Virus record (IMG/VR): IMGVR_UViG_2671180556_000001
Coordinates: 1 to 5,243 of that record
Strand: one strand, 5' to 3'
From: a virus
Taxonomy: Duplodnaviria > Heunggongvirae > Uroviricota > Caudoviricetes
DNA length: 5,243 nt
Every line of letters begins with the position of its first letter. Position 1 is the stretch's first letter. Positions 1-5,243 of this stretch are shown in pieces. Under the pieces are notes generated by a model. It was not told the DNA's origin. It searched no databases and saw nothing but the letters and a program-made list of their open reading frames with translations. Made by a program: the position numbers and the translations under genes.

Positions 1-123
1 AAGGCCAGCATGACTGAGCTTATCGAAATCATGTTCTGGTTCGGCTCAGAGCGCAACGTGCGGTGGAGTGATGACTCCTGGCGAGAGTATGAATGGTCAC
101 AACGAAAAGGGAGAGCTGCATGA
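1..123 (+). CDS. 3' end of an upstream gene, truncated by the window edge (frame 1 reads ...[37 protein letters not shown]); possibly ninB-like by position
   Basis: Frame 1 is open from position 1 to a TGA at 121-123, which overlaps the next gene's ATG at 120-122 (ATGA junction). The ninB assignment rests only on typical nin-region gene order, not on recognised sequence. Confidence 0.4.
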   Translation, partial: KASMTELIEIMFWFGSERNVRWSDDSWREYEWSQRKGRAA

Positions 124-647
124 CTATCAAATCAAATACGCCATCACACGACAAGGACTGCTGGCAAACGCCGCTTTGGCTTTTTGATGCACTGGATATT
201 GAGTTTGGATTCTGGCTGGATTCAGCTGCGAGCGACAAAAATGCTCTGTGCGCTCACTGGCTAACTGAGGCCGACGACGCGCTAAATTCTGAGTGGATAA
301 GCCACGGTGCAATCTGGAATAACCCACCGTACAGCAATATCAGGCCGTGGGTGGAAAAAGCCGCTGAGCAGTGCATACAACAGCGACAGACGGTAGTTAT
401 GCTTGTGCCAGAGGATATGTCAGTCGGATGGTTCAGCAAGGCTCTGGAGAGTGTCGACGAAGTTCGCATTATCACTGATGGACGGATTAATTTTATCGAA
501 CCATCGACAGGGCTGGAGAAGAAGGGAAACAGCAAAGGCTCCATGCTGCTGATTTGGCGACCGTTCATCAGTCCTCGACGAATGTTTACTACTGTATCCA
601 AAGCGGCATTGATGGCGATCGGGCAGGGCGTCAGGATGGCGGCATGA
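120..647 (+). CDS. Phage DNA N6-adenine methyltransferase (Dam-type orphan methyltransferase)
   Basis: The translation contains the catalytic NPPY motif (IWNNPPYSN) typical of N6-adenine methyltransferases, and the overall size fits the small phage Dam family. A GGGAGAG Shine-Dalgarno lies 6-7 nt upstream of the ATG at 120; the track's in-frame ATG at 93 lacks an RBS, so 120 is preferred. Stop is TGA at 645-647. Confidence 0.8.
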
Positions 648-826
648 GGCGACAGCGAAGAAGTATCACCGACATCATCTGCGAAAACTGCAAATACCTT
701 CCAACGAAACGCTCCAGAAATAAACGCAAGCCAATCCCAAAAGAATCTGACGTAAAAACCTTCAACTACACGGCTCACCTGTGGGATATCCGGTGGCTAA
801 GACATCGTGCGAGGAAAACAAGGTGA
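644..826 (+). CDS. ninE: NinE protein (60 aa, lambda nin region)
   Basis: The ATG at 644-646 overlaps the methyltransferase stop (ATGA). The product [60 protein letters not shown] matches my recollection of lambda-family NinE. The track ORF 554..826 is the same frame with a spurious N-terminal extension. Confidence 0.75.
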
Positions 827-916
827 TTGACGCGATGATTTATTCGGGGCTATATTCCTCACGCGCCAGCAAAATCTGGCGTCGGGATTAGCACCCCGGA
901 TATCGAAACGGTGCAT

Positions 917-937
917 AACCGCGCTGGCGGTTTTTTT
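917..937 (+). terminator. Candidate rho-independent terminator downstream of ninE
   Basis: Perfect 6-bp stem AACCGC (917-922) / GCGGTT (927-932) with a 4-nt loop GCTG, followed by a T run through 937. Confidence 0.5.
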
Positions 938-1101
938 ATGCGCTAAGCACAGTCACATTCGCGATTTATGGCGGGCTGTGTGGGGGAGCCGAAAGGCTCG
1001 CCGGATGTTTCGACCGGTAGTGCTAACCCCGCACAGTTCGCCACCACGATGATTAGCACCTGACGGTGGCGAGGTAAAAATTATCGAAACGCGAGGTCAT
1101 T

Positions 1102-1779
1102 ATGGCTGTTCAAATTTCTGTCGAAAACCTTTCCCCTGTTACCTATAACCAGATCCCCGTAATTACTACTGAACTGTTGGCTCACCTTTACGGAACAAAA
1201 ATCAAAAACATTTCTGATAACTTTCTGAACAACACGACGCGATTCATGCCCGGAAAGCATTACTTTAAAATTGAAAAAAACGAATTACGCGAGTTTAAGA
1301 ACAGACCCGAAACAATCGGGTTAGTTGGTAAAAATGCCCGCTCCCTCATCCTCTGGACAGAACGCGGCGCAGCCCGTCACGCAAAAATGCTCGAAACCGA
1401 TCAGGCGTGGGATGTGTTCGAAAAACTGGAAGACTGCTATTTCAGCCAGTGCGAGAAAAATACTGGCAAACAAGAGAAGAAGCTCAACGGGCTTTCCGCA
1501 AAAGAAACAGACAGCCTTGTATGGCTGTGGGATTATGCCAACCGCTCACAGGCATTGTTCCGTGAGTTGTATCCCGCATTAAAACTGATTCAGTCTGGCT
1601 ATTCCGGCATATGCCACGACTACGGCTATGAGTTCTCGTATATCATCGGGAGGGCGAGAGACGTTTTAATCAATCACACACGAGATGTTGATATTAATGA
1701 GCCAGACGGACCAACGAATCTTTCCGCATGGGTAAGGCTTAAGAACAAAGAATTACCTCCTTCACTACATCGCTACTGA
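1102..1779 (+). CDS. ORF6N/KilA-N-like domain protein (putative phage DNA-binding regulatory protein)
   Basis: 225-aa ORF with a GAGGT Shine-Dalgarno 5 nt upstream of the ATG. The N-terminal region ([16 protein letters not shown] ... [14 protein letters not shown]) resembles the ORF6N domain signature as I recall it. The C-terminal half is unassigned. Confidence 0.65.
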
Positions 1780-1796
1780 CAATTGACAACTTAACA

Positions 1797-1820
1797 AACC
1801 CAGCTTCGGCTGGGTTTTTT
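1797..1820 (+). terminator. Candidate rho-independent terminator after the ORF6N gene
   Basis: 8-bp stem AACCCAGC (1797-1804) / GCTGGGTT (1809-1816) with a TTCG tetraloop, running into a T tract that ends at 1820. Confidence 0.6.
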
Positions 1821-1853
1821 ATTGGTGAATTTTCAATATGAGAGGACATGACA

Positions 1854-2576
1854 ATGAACGAGCTGATAAATAGCAACGTCATCAAAATGACCAGCATTGA
1901 AATCTCTGAGCTTACAGGTAAGCGTCATGACAATGTGAAACGTACTATCGAAATGCTGGCTAAAAATGGTGTTATCCGACATCCTCAAATTGAGGATTGT
2001 GGAAGAATCAATGGGTTAGGCTTAAATCAAAGTTTTCGTGTGTATGTATTCGAAGGCGAACAAGGTAAGCGAGACAGCATTATTGTCGTTGCCCAGTTGT
2101 CGCCGGAATTCACCGCTCGTCTTGTTGACCGTTGGCGAGAGCTTGAAGACGCTGCGGTTAATATCCCCAAAACTCTACCAGAAGCGTTGCGCCTTGCTGC
2201 TGATCTTGCTGAGCAGAAAATGCAACTGGAAAACCAGCTCGCAATTGCCGCACCTAAAGTTGAGTTTGCCGATCGCGTTGGCGAGGCCAGTGGAATTTTG
2301 ATTGGAAACTATGCAAAGGTTGTTGGTATTGGTCCAAACAAACTGTTTGCGTGGATGCGCGAACACAAAATCCTTATTGCTTCAGGTTCCCGGCGCAATG
2401 TGCCAATGCAGGAATATATGGATCGCGGCTATTTCACAGTGAAAGAAACAGCGGTCAATACAAATCACGGAATACAGATATCGTTCACCACAAAAATCAC
2501 CGGGCGTGGTCAACAGTGGCTGACCAGAAAGCTGCTCGATAACGGAATGCTGAAAGTAACAGGGGAGGCTGCTTAA
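1854..2576 (+). CDS. Phage antirepressor-family protein (N-terminal Rha regulatory domain, C-terminal KilAC/Ant domain)
   Basis: The N-terminus carries the Rha-family motif ([22 protein letters not shown]) and the C-terminal half resembles antirepressor KilA-C domains ([14 protein letters not shown]...). GAGAGGA at 1840-1846 sits 7 nt before the ATG at 1854, whereas the track's ATG at 1848 is only 1 nt from it, so 1854 is preferred. Stop is TAA at 2574-2576. Confidence 0.8.
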
Positions 2577-3181
2577 TGGCTAAACCAGCGCGAAGGAAAT
2601 GCAAAATATGCAAGGAATGGTTTCACCCGGCATTCTCAAATCAGTGGTGGTGCTGCCCGGAACACGGAACTCAATTAGCACTCGAACGACGAAGTAAAGA
2701 ACGCGAAAAAGCGGAAAAAGCAGCAGAGAAGAAACGACGACGAGAGGAGCAGAAACAGAAAGATAAACTGAAGATTCGAAAACTCGCCTTAAAGCCCCGC
2801 AGTTACTGGATTAAACAAGCCCAACAAGCCGTAAACGCCTTCGTCAGAGAAAGAGACCGCGACTTACCATGTATCTCGTGCGGAACGCTCACGTCTGCTC
2901 AGTGGGATGCCGGACATTACCGGACAACTGCTGCGGCACCTCAACTCCGATTTGATGAACGCAATATTCACAAGCAATGCGTGGTGTGCAACCAGCACAA
3001 AAGCGGAAATCTCGTTCCGTATCGCGTCGAACTGATTAACCGCATCGGGCAGGAAGCAGTAGACGAAATCGAATCAAACCATAACCGCCATCGCTGGACT
3101 GCCGAAGAGTGCAAGACCATCAAGGCGGAGTATCAACAGAAACTTAAAAAACTGCGAAATAGCAGAAGTGAGGCTGCATGA
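2576..3181 (+). CDS. ninG: NinG (Rap) recombination protein, a Cys-rich structure-specific endonuclease family
   Basis: 201-aa product with Cys clusters ([10 protein letters not shown]...WCCPEHG; CISCG...[11 protein letters not shown]) and a basic Lys/Arg-rich linker, matching lambda NinG in size and features. The start overlaps the previous stop (TAATG) and is preceded by AGGGGAGG. Confidence 0.8.
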
Positions 3182-3849
3182 ATATCTACGAAAGAATTGA
3201 TGGCAGCAAATACCGAAATATTTGGGTAGTTGGCGATCTGCACGGATGCTACACGAACCTGATGAACAAACTGGATACGATAGGATTCGACAACAAAAAA
3301 GACCTGCTCATCTCGGTTGGCGATTTGGTTGATCGCGGTACAGAGAACGTCGAATGTCTGGAATTAATCACATTCCCCTGGTTCAGAGCTGTACGTGGAA
3401 ACCATGAGCAAATGATGATTGATGGCTTATCAGAGCGTGGAAACGTTAATCACTGGCTGCTTAATGGCGGTGGCTGGTTCTTCAATCTCGATTACGACAA
3501 AGAGATTCTGGCTAAAGCTCTTGCCCATAAAGCAGAAGAACTTCCGTTAATCATCGAACTGGTGAGCAAAGATAAAAAATATGTCATTTGCCACGCCGAT
3601 TATCCTTGTAACGAATACGAATTTGGAAAGCCAGTTGATCCTCTGCAGGTAATCTGGAACCGCGAACGAATCGGCAACTCACAAGACGGGATCGTGAAAG
3701 AAATTAAAGGCGCGGACACGTTCATCTTTGGTCATACGCCAGCAGTGAAACCACTCAAATTTGCCAACCAGATGTATATCGATACCGGCGCAGTGTTCTG
3801 CGGAAACCTCACATTGATTCAGGTACAGGGAGAAGGCGCGTGGGCATAA
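3178..3849 (+). CDS. Serine/threonine protein phosphatase (lambda phosphatase-like metallophosphoesterase)
   Basis: Metallophosphatase signature motifs are visible: GDLHG, GDLVDRG and GNHE. The N-terminal sequence ([35 protein letters not shown]) is close to lambda protein phosphatase as I recall it. The ATG overlaps the ninG stop (ATGA). Confidence 0.9.
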
Positions 3850-4328
3850 GAGAACTAAACCTCACCAAAGAACAGCACGAGTGGCTGAATGGCTGGCTTG
3901 AACTGTGGGGCGCATGGGTTTATTCAGGTCGTCTGGAAAAGCGCATGAGCAGCGTAATAGCGAAGTTCATGGAGAGCGTAGAGCCGGGAAGAGTTATGAC
4001 AAGGCCAATGTGTAATGATGATGATGGAATGTTGATTTCTCAGGTCGTCGATTCCGTCATGTACATTGACAAGAAAGCCTTCGGCATCCTCCTCAGCTAC
4101 TACGCTCATGGTTCTTCCAGGCACGCCATTGCATCTTACTATCATCGCGTCGCAAGACCTCGCAAGATGTTATGCCGGGGCGGCGGGCGCATTCAAAAAC
4201 CATCGCTCGCAACCTGTCGACGGGAAGTTGACGAAATCCTTAATGCCTCGTTGTTTATGATTTACCCGGTTCTGGATAGTGCGTTTAAAAACCGGAAACG
4301 TGTAGAGAAAATTAAACATGTAGCATAG
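3840..4328 (+). CDS. Q: Late-gene antitermination protein Q (non-lambda Q family, phage 82/21/Stx-phage type)
   Basis: The product carries the N-terminal LWGAWV motif that I recall from the small Q antiterminator family, and the gene sits directly upstream of a candidate late promoter. GGGAGAAGG at 3828-3836 precedes a GTG start at 3840, overlapping the phosphatase 3' end by 10 nt. The start is uncertain; the next in-frame ATG is at 3945. Confidence 0.7.
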
Positions 4329-4330
4329 AA

Positions 4331-4373
4331 CGTGTTGACATCATTGAGCAAATGAGCAACACTATTGGCATAA
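4331..4373 (+). promoter_or_regulatory. Candidate Q-dependent late promoter (pR'-like) and Q-engagement region
   Basis: A consensus -35 hexamer TTGACA lies at 4335-4340, just after the Q stop. I could not place a convincing -10 hexamer at 16-18 bp spacing (TATTGG at 4363-4368 and TAAGCT at 4371-4376 are at non-canonical spacing). The call rests on position plus the -35 match. Confidence 0.35.
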
Positions 4374-4418
4374 GCTGCCGTTAGTGACTCTTAAGTTGCA
4401 ACGGTGGCTTTTTTATTT
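4374..4418 (+). terminator. Candidate tR'-like intrinsic terminator
   Basis: 9-bp stem GCTGCCGTT (4374-4382) / AACGGTGGC (4400-4408) including two G-U pairs, a large 17-nt loop, then TTTTTTATTT (4409-4418). Confidence 0.45.
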
Positions 4419-4493
4419 GGGTCAGTCGTATAAAGGTCATTACGGAAGGCTGTTAACCTTCTTATCGTGGTTCGAGTCCACGCTGTCCCGCCA
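4419..4493 (+). tRNA. tRNA-Asn(GUU)-like gene, 75 nt including encoded CCA
   Basis: Manual cloverleaf: acceptor GGGTCAG/CTGTCCC (one T-T mismatch at pair 4-69), U8, D arm GTAT-AAAGGTCA-TTAC with G18/G19, perfect anticodon stem GAAGG/CCTTC with loop CTGTTAA (anticodon GTT), T arm CGTGG-TTCGAGT-CCACG, discriminator G, CCA. The anticodon loop and T loop resemble E. coli tRNA-Asn as I recall it. Confidence 0.55.
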
Positions 4494-4498
4494 AACAT

Positions 4499-4574
4499 GC
4501 TGGTTTAGCTCCAATGGTAGAGCAACTGACTTGTAATCATCAGGTCGCCAGTTCGATTCCGGTAGCCGGCACCA
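4499..4574 (+). tRNA. tRNA-Thr(UGU)-like gene with imperfect stems, 76 nt including CCA; possibly divergent or a pseudo-tRNA
   Basis: Acceptor GCTGGTT/AGCCGGC (7 pairs, two G-U), U8, canonical D arm GCTC-CAATGGTA-GAGC, anticodon loop CTTGTAA (anticodon TGT), T loop TTCGATT, discriminator A, CCA. The anticodon stem (ACTGA/TCATC) has only 3 Watson-Crick pairs and the T stem (GCCAG/CCGGT) has one A-C mismatch. Confidence 0.5.
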
Positions 4575-4577
4575 TAT

Positions 4578-4652
4578 GCGGGTACCGTATAATGGCTATT
4601 ACCTCAGCCTTCCAGGCTGATGATGCGGGTTCGATTCCCGCTACCCGCTCCA
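4578..4652 (+). tRNA. tRNA-Gly(UCC), glyT-like, 75 nt including CCA
   Basis: Perfect 7-bp acceptor GCGGGTA/TACCCGC, D arm GTAT-AATGGCTA-TTAC, perfect anticodon stem TCAGC/GCTGA with loop CTTCCAG (anticodon TCC), perfect T arm GCGGG-TTCGATT-CCCGC, discriminator T, CCA. The sequence is nearly identical to enterobacterial tRNA-Gly2 (glyT) as I recall it. Confidence 0.8.
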
Positions 4653-4665
4653 GATTTATTATCAG

Positions 4666-4688
4666 GCTCGCTTCGGCGGGCTTTTTTT
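4666..4688 (+). terminator. Rho-independent terminator after the tRNA cluster
   Basis: 6-bp stem GCTCGC (4666-4671) / GCGGGC (4676-4681) with one G-U pair and a TTCG tetraloop, followed by seven T (4682-4688). Confidence 0.6.
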
Positions 4689-4740
4689 GTATCTGCGTTA
4701 CACCATTAACTAATAAATCGAGTGCTTATCAGGAGGCTAT

Positions 4741-4965
4741 GTGAAAAAGCTGATGGTGACGATTGGTCCGTTCGAAACAGAAGTTAGTTTTCGTGTCGTT
4801 CAGGGGGAGAGTGTACTTGTTGAAGATGTATTTCATGGAAAATCAACAGGTCCTTATGTAAAAGAATATTTTGTCGACGCCACGGATGAAAATATTGAGG
4901 TGGTGTACGATTCCGTCAATCACCCTAATTTGATCATTAAGGCAAAATTGAAACCACTTTATTGA
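4741..4965 (+). CDS. Hypothetical small protein (74 aa), unknown function, in the cargo position downstream of the late promoter
   Basis: ORF with AGGAGG at 4731-4736 and a GTG start at 4741 (short 4-nt spacer); stop TGA at 4963-4965. I recognise no motif in the product. Confidence 0.5.
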   Translation: MKKLMVTIGPFETEVSFRVVQGESVLVEDVFHGKSTGPYVKEYFVDATDENIEVVYDSVNHPNLIIKAKLKPLY

Positions 4966-5017
4966 TCTGAGCGGGAGCAATCATAAAATATCTCTGGGTA
5001 CCCATAAGGAGATAAAT

Positions 5018-5227
5018 ATGTTTGTTGCTGAAGGGGTAATGGAAGATAAGGACAACAAAGGATGTGTTAAAGGTTGGGCTGTGGTAAGAAACTCGCCATG
5101 GCATCTTGTTGGGGTTTTTGCGACAGAGGAAGACGCGGAAATGGAAGCAAGAAAGACGGGAGATGAGTACGAGGTTCACTATGGCTCGCATCGAACAGGA
5201 AGTGATGATTTTGTCTGGGGGGAGTAA
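5018..5227 (+). CDS. Hypothetical small acidic protein (69 aa), unknown function
   Basis: Strong Shine-Dalgarno AAGGAG 7 nt upstream of the ATG at 5018; stop TAA at 5225-5227. The C-terminus is acidic (EEDAEMEARKTGDEYE). I recognise no confident family. Confidence 0.6.
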   Translation: MFVAEGVMEDKDNKGCVKGWAVVRNSPWHLVGVFATEEDAEMEARKTGDEYEVHYGSHRTGSDDFVWGE

Positions 5228-5243
5228 CAGTCGTTTAACCCCA

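Follow-up and report, generated by a model that had tools for sequence, protein, structure and literature searches.

Do two regulatory-type genes lying side by side in a lambdoid nin region form one acquired unit, or are they neighbours inherited independently? The question is raised by a 5,243-nucleotide (nt) stretch of phage DNA (positions 1 to 5,243 of the IMG/VR record IMGVR_UViG_2671180556_000001; Caudoviricetes), henceforth the window, in which two open reading frames (ORFs), ORF1 and ORF2, lie between ninE (644-826) and ninG (2576-3181). An initial annotation, made from the letters of the DNA, had placed both genes in this interval and noted that lambda has only small nin ORFs there, both of which hold good, the lambda interval containing ninF alone; it went on to propose a terminator-bounded regulatory cassette comprising the pair. 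Our analysis points with considerable confidence to a different arrangement, namely two known features of Shiga toxin (Stx)-type lambdoid phages placed next to each other: a riboregulated moron carrying the gene ant (827-1820) and a separate gene of the nin operon, roi. The window corresponds to a lambdoid nin region as found in Stx phages, and ORF1 and ORF2 are the genes annotated as ant and roi in phi24B, Min27, VT2-Sakai, 2851, 1717 and many other Stx phages. The features in and between the two genes are as follows:

1102-1779, plus strand: ant (ORF1), coding for a 225-residue protein with ORF6N and P22AR_C domains, assigned by Pfam, PHROG and identity to phi24B Ant
1796-1820, plus strand: intrinsic terminator with a 9-bp stem, a TTCG loop and a T-run (stem-loop 1796-1817)
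1848-2576, plus strand: roi (ORF2), coding for a 242-residue KilAC (ANT) protein with a weak Rha-like N-terminus, assigned by Pfam and PHROG 63
2006-2018, plus strand: AATCAATGGGTTA, a match to the integration host factor (IHF) consensus, the sole one in the window, inside roi

On sequence grounds ORF1 is the ortholog of phi24B Ant, with which it is identical at 219 of 225 positions (97%). A Pfam search bore out the ORF6N domain named in the initial annotation (PF10543; residues 12-96, E = 2.6e-20, 72.9 bits against a cut-off of 27.8, profile positions 3-86 of 86) and further recovered a P22_AR_C domain that it had not mentioned (PF10548; residues 126-197, E = 3e-24, 85.3 bits against a cut-off of 22.4, profile positions 2-73 of 73); the protein also matches PHROG 377, 'anti-repressor Ant' (E = 3e-81). 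The window shares with phi24B (vB_EcoP_24B, HM208303), Min27 and VT2-Sakai the order ninE-ant-roi-ninG with ORFs of 225 and 242 residues. With phi24B it aligns colinearly across positions 1-3181 at 94.7% identity and has in common the leader and the inter-gene terminator described below, but it differs from that phage in its roi allele, in having ninI and a different Q, and in the absence of stx after the tRNAs. Deletion of ant in phi24B reduced pR'-lux activity after norfloxacin to 27-56% of the wild type, a defect restored by pBAD-ant, and left superinfection immunity unaffected (Fogg et al.; PMC3064807). Smith et al. refer to Ant as a 'lytic induction enhancer' and mention that Roi lies downstream (PMC3430580).

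The 275 nt from ninE to ant (827-1101) are an RNA leader of the P1/Gifsy-1 type and not a spacer. The following elements were identified in it:

827-856, plus strand: sigma-70 promoter-like site, TTGACG-18 nt-TATATT, matching the consensus at 10 of 12 positions, directly after the ninE stop
850-902, plus strand: c4-a1b1 target element (Rfam RF03163, 50.6 bits; gathering threshold 46.7)
863-937, plus strand: IsrK-like small RNA (sRNA) with its own intrinsic terminator (Rfam RF01394 isrK, full model, 76.6 bits; gathering threshold 50)
888-894 and 903-909, plus strand: boxes a1 (TTAGCAC) and b1 (TCGAAAC), in the IsrK-like RNA
917-932 with a T-run to 937, plus strand: hairpin of the IsrK terminator
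964-1048, plus strand: C4-like antisense RNA (Rfam RF01695 C4, full model 1-87, 75.1 bits; gathering threshold 45)
968-1063, plus strand: 31-codon upstream ORF (uORF) overlapping the C4-like RNA at the position of Gifsy-1 orf45, with no Shine-Dalgarno (SD) motif upstream
1007-1013, plus strand: box b' (GTTTCGA), in the loop of the second C4 hairpin
1020-1026, plus strand: box a' (GTGCTAA), in the unpaired stretch 3' of the second C4 hairpin
1038-1072, plus strand: possible alternative hairpin pairing 1038-1045 with 1065-1072, which would involve the 3' side of the outer C4 stem and expose a2 in its loop
1053-1059 and 1084-1090, plus strand: boxes a2 (TTAGCAC) and b2 (TCGAAAC), the downstream targets

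The boxes a' and b' are exactly complementary to TTAGCAC and TCGAAAC, each of which is present once in the IsrK-like RNA and once downstream, where b2 ends 2 nt ahead of the ant SD motif GAGG. The C4-like RNA is predicted to fold into a long outer stem around two hairpins (minimum free energy -49.1 kcal/mol, z = -5.95, with none of 200 shuffles as good), and has a CCACCA motif on its 3' side (1041-1046), the one visible sign of the RNase P processing expected of C4 RNAs. To compare this leader with its relatives we collected 87 leaders from ant-bearing loci, which reduce to 31 distinct sequences (alleles). Positions 827-885 are nearly invariant among them, and the -10 hexamer of the promoter-like site ends 6 nt ahead of position 1 of the isrK model (863); we presume 827-856 to be the promoter of both the IsrK-like RNA and the ant leader. 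Among the loci scanned, the leader is found in all eight ant-bearing loci and in none of the six with roi only, including 933W and HK620. Of 5426 complete Escherichia coli genomes, 1854 contain leader-like sequence, some in as many as seven copies. It is without annotation in nearly all the phage and RefSeq records examined, and in the searchable literature we found no link of an IsrK/C4 leader to the ant of Stx phages.

Both boxes of the C4-like RNA are complementary to their upstream and downstream targets, and they covary with them across the alleles. There are five b' alleles (GTTTCGA, GGTTTC, CCTTTTTC, TCCGTAC and TGGTTGAT) and five a' alleles (GTGCTAA, ACGCCAA, GTTCCTAA, ATGCCAA and GTGCAAA), which are modularly combined, and every leader has the matching complement at each of its two target sites, upstream and downstream; when non-matching alleles are set against each other, the complementarity shrinks to 2-5 nt, as compared with 6-9 nt, except where a box is shared. 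Over the 31 alleles the internal helices of C4 are 92-100% paired, both partners having changed at seven pairs, pairing of the a'-a2 helix is complete (100%) although both partners have changed at three of its six pairs, and the a1-a' pairing holds in 97.8% of cells, again with compensatory changes. For the C4 helices and a'-a2 taken together 98.8% of cells are paired and 10 pairs have changed on both sides, as against 37-47% pairing with a slid partner. The alternative hairpin, which we modelled on the alternative structures of Gifsy-1 isrK, is likewise fully paired (100%) and contains a single compensatory pair (GC 12, AU 16, GU 3; slid controls 25-75%), which weakly suggests that it may form. 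The uORF, by contrast with these pairings, ranges among the alleles from 14 to more than 47 codons and is not always in the same frame, and its stop lies 38 nt ahead of ant; it is probably not a conserved protein, which makes a translational coupling of the Gifsy-1 type doubtful here.

These patterns bear on the proposal that the hairpins at 917-937 and 1796-1820 are plain nin terminators, like tR3 and tR4 of lambda, that belong to N-dependent late expression, and that the leader RNAs are functionless. Terminators define nin regions, as textbooks have it, and the nin5 deletion gives N-independence; both hairpins, moreover, lie on the path of the pR transcript to Q. Even so, we regard this proposal as highly improbable: the first hairpin falls within a full-length isrK match with a C4 match next to it, the covariation across three sites indicates selection on RNA-RNA pairing that goes beyond termination, and the leader is confined to loci with ant-type genes, nin regions that lack such genes being without it. 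The two roles are compatible, and as parts of a riboregulated ant cassette both hairpins would still be N-sensitive terminators.

The second hairpin (predicted fold -15.9 kcal/mol, z = -3.8) marks the end of that cassette. Segment 827-1820 is moron-like, consisting of the leader, ant and the terminator, with a putative promoter: the promoter-like site at 827-856 stands at its start, and the cassette as a whole is absent from lambda, from HK620 and from the majority of roi loci. In 67 of 78 evaluable ant loci the terminator is kept with a constant gap, the roi ATG lying 71 nt past the last sense codon of ant, and it is retained in 933W and PA28 despite a different neighbouring gene. The initial annotation had recognised terminator-like hairpins at both places and a separate ribosome-binding site for each gene, all of which we recovered: the hairpins at 917-932 and 1796-1817, each with a T-run, and the SD motifs GAGG at 1093-1096 and GAGAGGA at 1840-1846. 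Its view that the hairpins bracket the pair could not be sustained: the second falls within the 68 nt that separate ORF1 from ORF2 and hence cannot bracket both, so that ORF1 is bracketed at most, and the first, which it took for a module border, is the terminator of the IsrK-like sRNA inside the ant leader. Nor does the pair lack overlapping junctions of the kind seen among the nin genes, as it had stated, since the roi TAA (2574-2576) overlaps the ninG ATG (2576-2578) in TAATG, which joins roi to the nin operon like its neighbours.

We then examined the neighbourhoods of roi in the best 80 Roi loci of IMG/VR (Roi at least 91% identical), 75 of which were evaluable for the upstream gene. It is ninF without ant in 56 of these, an ORF6N-type ant in 16, a P22-type ant in two and a P63C gene in one; on the downstream side, just 10 of 76 loci have NinG after roi. 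From the side of ant, roi lies downstream in all 78 evaluable loci, at the fixed spacing in 67 and beyond 228 or ~637 nt of other DNA in the remaining 11. The relation of the two genes is asymmetric, ant being always with roi and roi usually without ant. The alternative that they are one two-gene module, gained and lost together and coding for cooperating antirepressor-type proteins, can draw on the constancy with which roi follows ant and on the 430 of 5426 complete E. coli genomes with a match to 80% or more of 827-2600, a span that takes in the leader and both genes. Ant and Roi both come, besides, from shuffled antirepressor/KilA/Bro domain families, and a leaky terminator at 1796-1820 could allow co-transcription of roi from the ant promoter. 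Nonetheless, the comparative data largely refute the two-gene module, and we consider it very unlikely: besides the 56 of 75 roi loci without ant, roi has other upstream neighbours in HK620, 933W and PA28, a conserved terminator separates the genes, the RNA leader travels with ant only, and roi is tied to ninG by the overlapping stop and start. The alleles too are reshuffled, with Ant of ~98% identity found with Roi of ~83%, and Roi of 100% with Ant of 74-78%. Inheritance of the pair as a unit is thereby largely contradicted. What survives of the acquired antirepressor-type cassette put forward by the initial annotation concerns ant, for which the identity to phi24B Ant, the knockout, the P22-type C-terminus and the RNA leader speak, and not the pair.

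The junctions in individual phages display how such neighbourhoods are built. HK620 has roi after ninF with overlapping junctions and neither a terminator nor ant upstream, in which it is unlike the window. In PA28 the order is ant, terminator, another gene, ninF and roi. In 933W (3935-4095), the final ~30 nt of ant, along with the terminator that separates it from roi, persist upstream of roi, right after a P63C gene with its own terminator, and are the footprint of an ant replaced by another cassette. In JLK-2012 (4545-6140), a P22 immI-like cassette flanked by an 80-bp direct repeat lies inside ant and comprises a leftward Arc-family gene, a rightward Arc-like gene and an ant with P22_AR_N and P22_AR_C; the ant of the window is the form without this insert. 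This anatomy suggests that the interval from ninE to roi is a hot spot of cassette exchange, with roi as its stable neighbour.

As to how the leader might act, two characterised systems provide models. In P1 and P7, synthesis of the antirepressor is shut off by the c4 RNA, which pairs with sequence around the ribosome-binding site, and heteroimmunity arises from differences between alleles (PMC12197685; also the APSE paper). The immI arrangement of these phages (a1 b1 - c4 - a2 b2 - icd - ant1/ant2) is like that of the window in having a C4-family RNA flanked on either side by a copy of its two target boxes, the second copy falling at the ribosome-binding site of the regulated gene, and the allelic box variants of our leaders resemble this heteroimmunity. 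The window is unlike P1/P7 in having no icd, in boxes that abut the ant SD, in a product with ORF6N and P22AR_C in place of Ant1/2, in its lambdoid nin location, and in upstream boxes that lie in a separately terminated IsrK-like sRNA. The second model is isrK-orf45(STnc1160)-anrP-isrJ of the Salmonella prophage Gifsy-1, which has in common with the window an IsrK-family sRNA, a promoter (putative in the window), a leaky terminator, a structured RNA and an antirepressor-like gene, and from which the window differs in that its uORF shows no conservation at the protein level; an Rfam scan found no isrJ match downstream in the window. Most isrK transcripts of Gifsy-1 end at the IsrK terminator, and read-through yields a silent isrK-orf45-anrP mRNA along with the processed RNA STnc1160. 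When IsrK, an Hfq-binding sRNA, is provided in trans, translation of anrP increases 139-fold, and the AnrP protein is an inducer of the prophage (PMC4825925).

By analogy with P1/P7 c4 and Gifsy-1 isrK, most transcripts in a lysogen would stop at the IsrK terminator, and those reading through would give the C4-like RNA, which would pair with a2 and b2 and block translation of ant. The IsrK-like RNA, with a1 and b1 as decoy boxes, might counteract this block. Upon induction, N-antiterminated transcription from pR would pass both terminators and raise ant expression, and Ant would speed derepression, probably by binding CI as P22 Ant binds its repressor.

Several points weigh against this reading. 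The energies of the 7-nt box duplexes are no better than those of shuffled boxes and hence uninformative, so that covariation alone argues for the RNA-RNA pairing; the alleles share descent and have recombined, and the sequence counts given above imply more independent events than there were. The case for a promoter is no more than a match to the consensus, and a scan of the window gives five such sites against 6.1 expected from shuffles. The P1 model, in which C4 represses, and the Gifsy-1 model, in which IsrK activates via uORF coupling, differ, and as the uORF is not conserved the exact control logic in this lineage is uncertain. Finally, the work on phi24B Ant established a phenotype but did not demonstrate CI binding (PMC3064807), and the N-terminal domain of Ant is ORF6N where that of P22 Ant is P22_AR_N.

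The last of these points lead to a further alternative, in which Ant is an ORF6N DNA-binding regulator or an exclusion or defence factor that does not bind CI, and the phi24B phenotype is indirect. That CI binding has never been demonstrated, that the phi24B ant knockout has no effect on superinfection immunity, that the N-terminal domain is unlike that of P22 Ant, and that ORF6N is widespread in Gram-positive phages under various annotations would all fit, as would weak PADLOC matches on the ORF6N domain to PDC-S05, an uncharacterised candidate defence family (E ~1e-6). Set against this are the last 104 residues of ORF1, which show 87% identity to the C-terminal part of P22 Ant, the archetype of an antirepressor that binds and inactivates repressors (PMC3064807), even though the N-terminal domains are unrelated. 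The leader, too, is of the type that controls the P1 antirepressors and the Gifsy-1 inducer, the knockout phenotype fits faster derepression, and the PADLOC scores are low (~26 bits). A CI-independent Ant hence strikes us as unlikely, and by analogy Ant is probably a P22-type antirepressor that acts on CI. It does not have the P22 architecture of P22_AR_N and P22_AR_C under Mnt/Arc: the likeness to P22 immI (mnt-arc-ant with the sar RNA) is confined to the P22AR_C domain, and the window has no Arc-family genes, Mnt or sar, an ORF6N N-terminus, and a C4/IsrK leader as its presumptive control.

A defence role for Ant was ranked low among the candidates, the PDC-S05 match being weak. For Ant and Roi, a PDB sequence search returned nothing relevant, an NCBIfam search gave no match, and AlphaFold2 run from single sequences produced unusable models (mean predicted local distance difference test scores of 33.7 and 37.8, respectively).

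The second gene belongs to a different context. Of the Rha/KilAC assignment made for ORF2 in the initial annotation, the KilAC part is firmly supported (Pfam ANT/KilAC, PF03374; residues 128-230, E = 6.9e-33, 113.7 bits against a cut-off of 25.3) and the Rha part marginally so (Phage_pRha, PF09669; 30.8 bits against a cut-off of 29.9); with P22 Rha, BLASTP gives 25% identity over 51 residues (E = 6e-4). ORF2 is 81% identical to phi24B Roi, falling to ~72% in the N-terminal half, and ~91-92% identical to HK620 roi at the nucleotide level. It resembles the Roi of HK620 and HK022 in its C-terminal KilAC domain and its position in the nin region, and is full-length in 201 of 219 matching phage records. 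Its SD motif at 1840-1846 is 1 nt from the first ATG (1848) and 7 nt from the second (1854); the latter, which is also the start in HK620 and JLK-2012, is likely the real one, and comparison with PA28 indicates that the first three codons, ATG ACA ATG, derive from the start of another gene fused to roi. HK022 Roi, the one member to have been characterised, was reportedly described by Clerget and Boccard in 1996 as a DNA-binding protein linked to IHF, which binds inside its own gene adjoining an IHF site. The window has one IHF consensus match as against 0.28 expected, and at least one was seen in 40 of 200 shuffles, so that it is not significant alone. We conclude that roi is a separate gene of the nin operon, with a poorly defined role in lytic growth that is independent of ant; to judge from its sequence, Roi is probably a DNA-binding protein like that of HK022, and an antirepressor label for it would derive solely from the name of the KilAC domain.

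Neither gene is new: annotations of both exist for many Stx phages, genetic work has been done on ant, and the RNA families are curated in Rfam. A by-product of the analysis is that the ant of Stx-type phages, including the phi24B gene on which experiments have been done, sits behind an IsrK/C4 RNA leader. Transcripts of phi24B ant are found in uninduced lysogens and immunity is not lost (PMC3064807 for immunity), which the leader may explain. It also offers a testable route of prophage cross-talk at the RNA level that could affect the induction of Stx phages. We tentatively raise the possibility that the a/b box alleles of C4 and IsrK constitute a code of RNA specificity between the many lambdoid prophages that E. 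coli carries. Were this so, the C4 RNA of a prophage would silence only an ant of the same allele, be it on a co-resident or an incoming phage, the IsrK-like RNA would unlock only matching ant genes, and the alleles would set which prophages cross-induce one another, with consequences for Stx phage induction in polylysogens. In one strain, JNE122536, which has both an Stx1 and an Stx2 prophage, the two differ in their box alleles, which fits such a code.

Some observations on these prophages may be recorded separately. The Stx1 prophage of JNE122536 has the box allele of the VT2-Sakai type, which combines ACGCCAA with GGTTTC. Stx2a_JNE122536 (2520-3407) has an isrK/C4 leader with a further box allele in a different genome region, as found in short-tailed O157 Stx2a phages, and the gene behind it appears Rha-like by eye.

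The phage collections also speak to the history of ant. Full-length ORF1 is found in 11 of 261 matching records and the other matches are segmental (231-678, 363-678 and 238-347), which indicates that ant is a mosaic gene. A 110-nt core of the ORF6N region (1339-1448) is 97% identical to antirepressor-like genes elsewhere in many Stx2a phages, such as PA2 and P13374, and is likely a recombination linker for domain shuffling. Phage 2851 (4306-4389) has a second ORF6N/P22AR_C gene, antB, located 3' of IS629 behind an RNA of the sRNA-Xcc1 family (79 bits) and not behind a C4 leader; sRNA-Xcc1 is also reported upstream of an ORF6N gene in the APSE phage paper.

The remaining genes of the window and the small ORFs at its end are the following:

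93/120-647: Dam-family methyltransferase
644-826: ninE, the 5' flank of the ant cassette
2576-3181: ninG, the 3' flank of roi
3178-3849: NinI-type phosphatase
3840-4328: Q antiterminator, after which come three tRNAs and two small ORFs
4741-4965: small ORF, function unassigned (PHROG 2571)
5018-5227: small ORF, function unassigned (PHROG 4280)

The phage record nearest to the window is that of JLK-2012 (E. coli O55:H7), which aligns in two pieces at 99.4% and 97.2% identity and whose homology stops at window position 4697. The stretch beyond, 4698-5243, corresponds to the site after Q and the tRNAs that is taken by stx in Stx phages, and here contains the two small ORFs, which have no Pfam or NCBIfam match, and no toxin genes. 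Between the Asn and Gly tRNAs, a third tRNA at 4499-4571 is recognised by Rfam (49 bits) without a call by ARAGORN, and its counterpart in JLK-2012 is annotated as tRNA-Thr. From Q to the first tRNA (4329-4418), the expected place of pR', qut and tR', we observed a TTGACA-containing stretch and a T-rich hairpin-like sequence, and a short pR'-derived RNA like StxS may arise from this segment.

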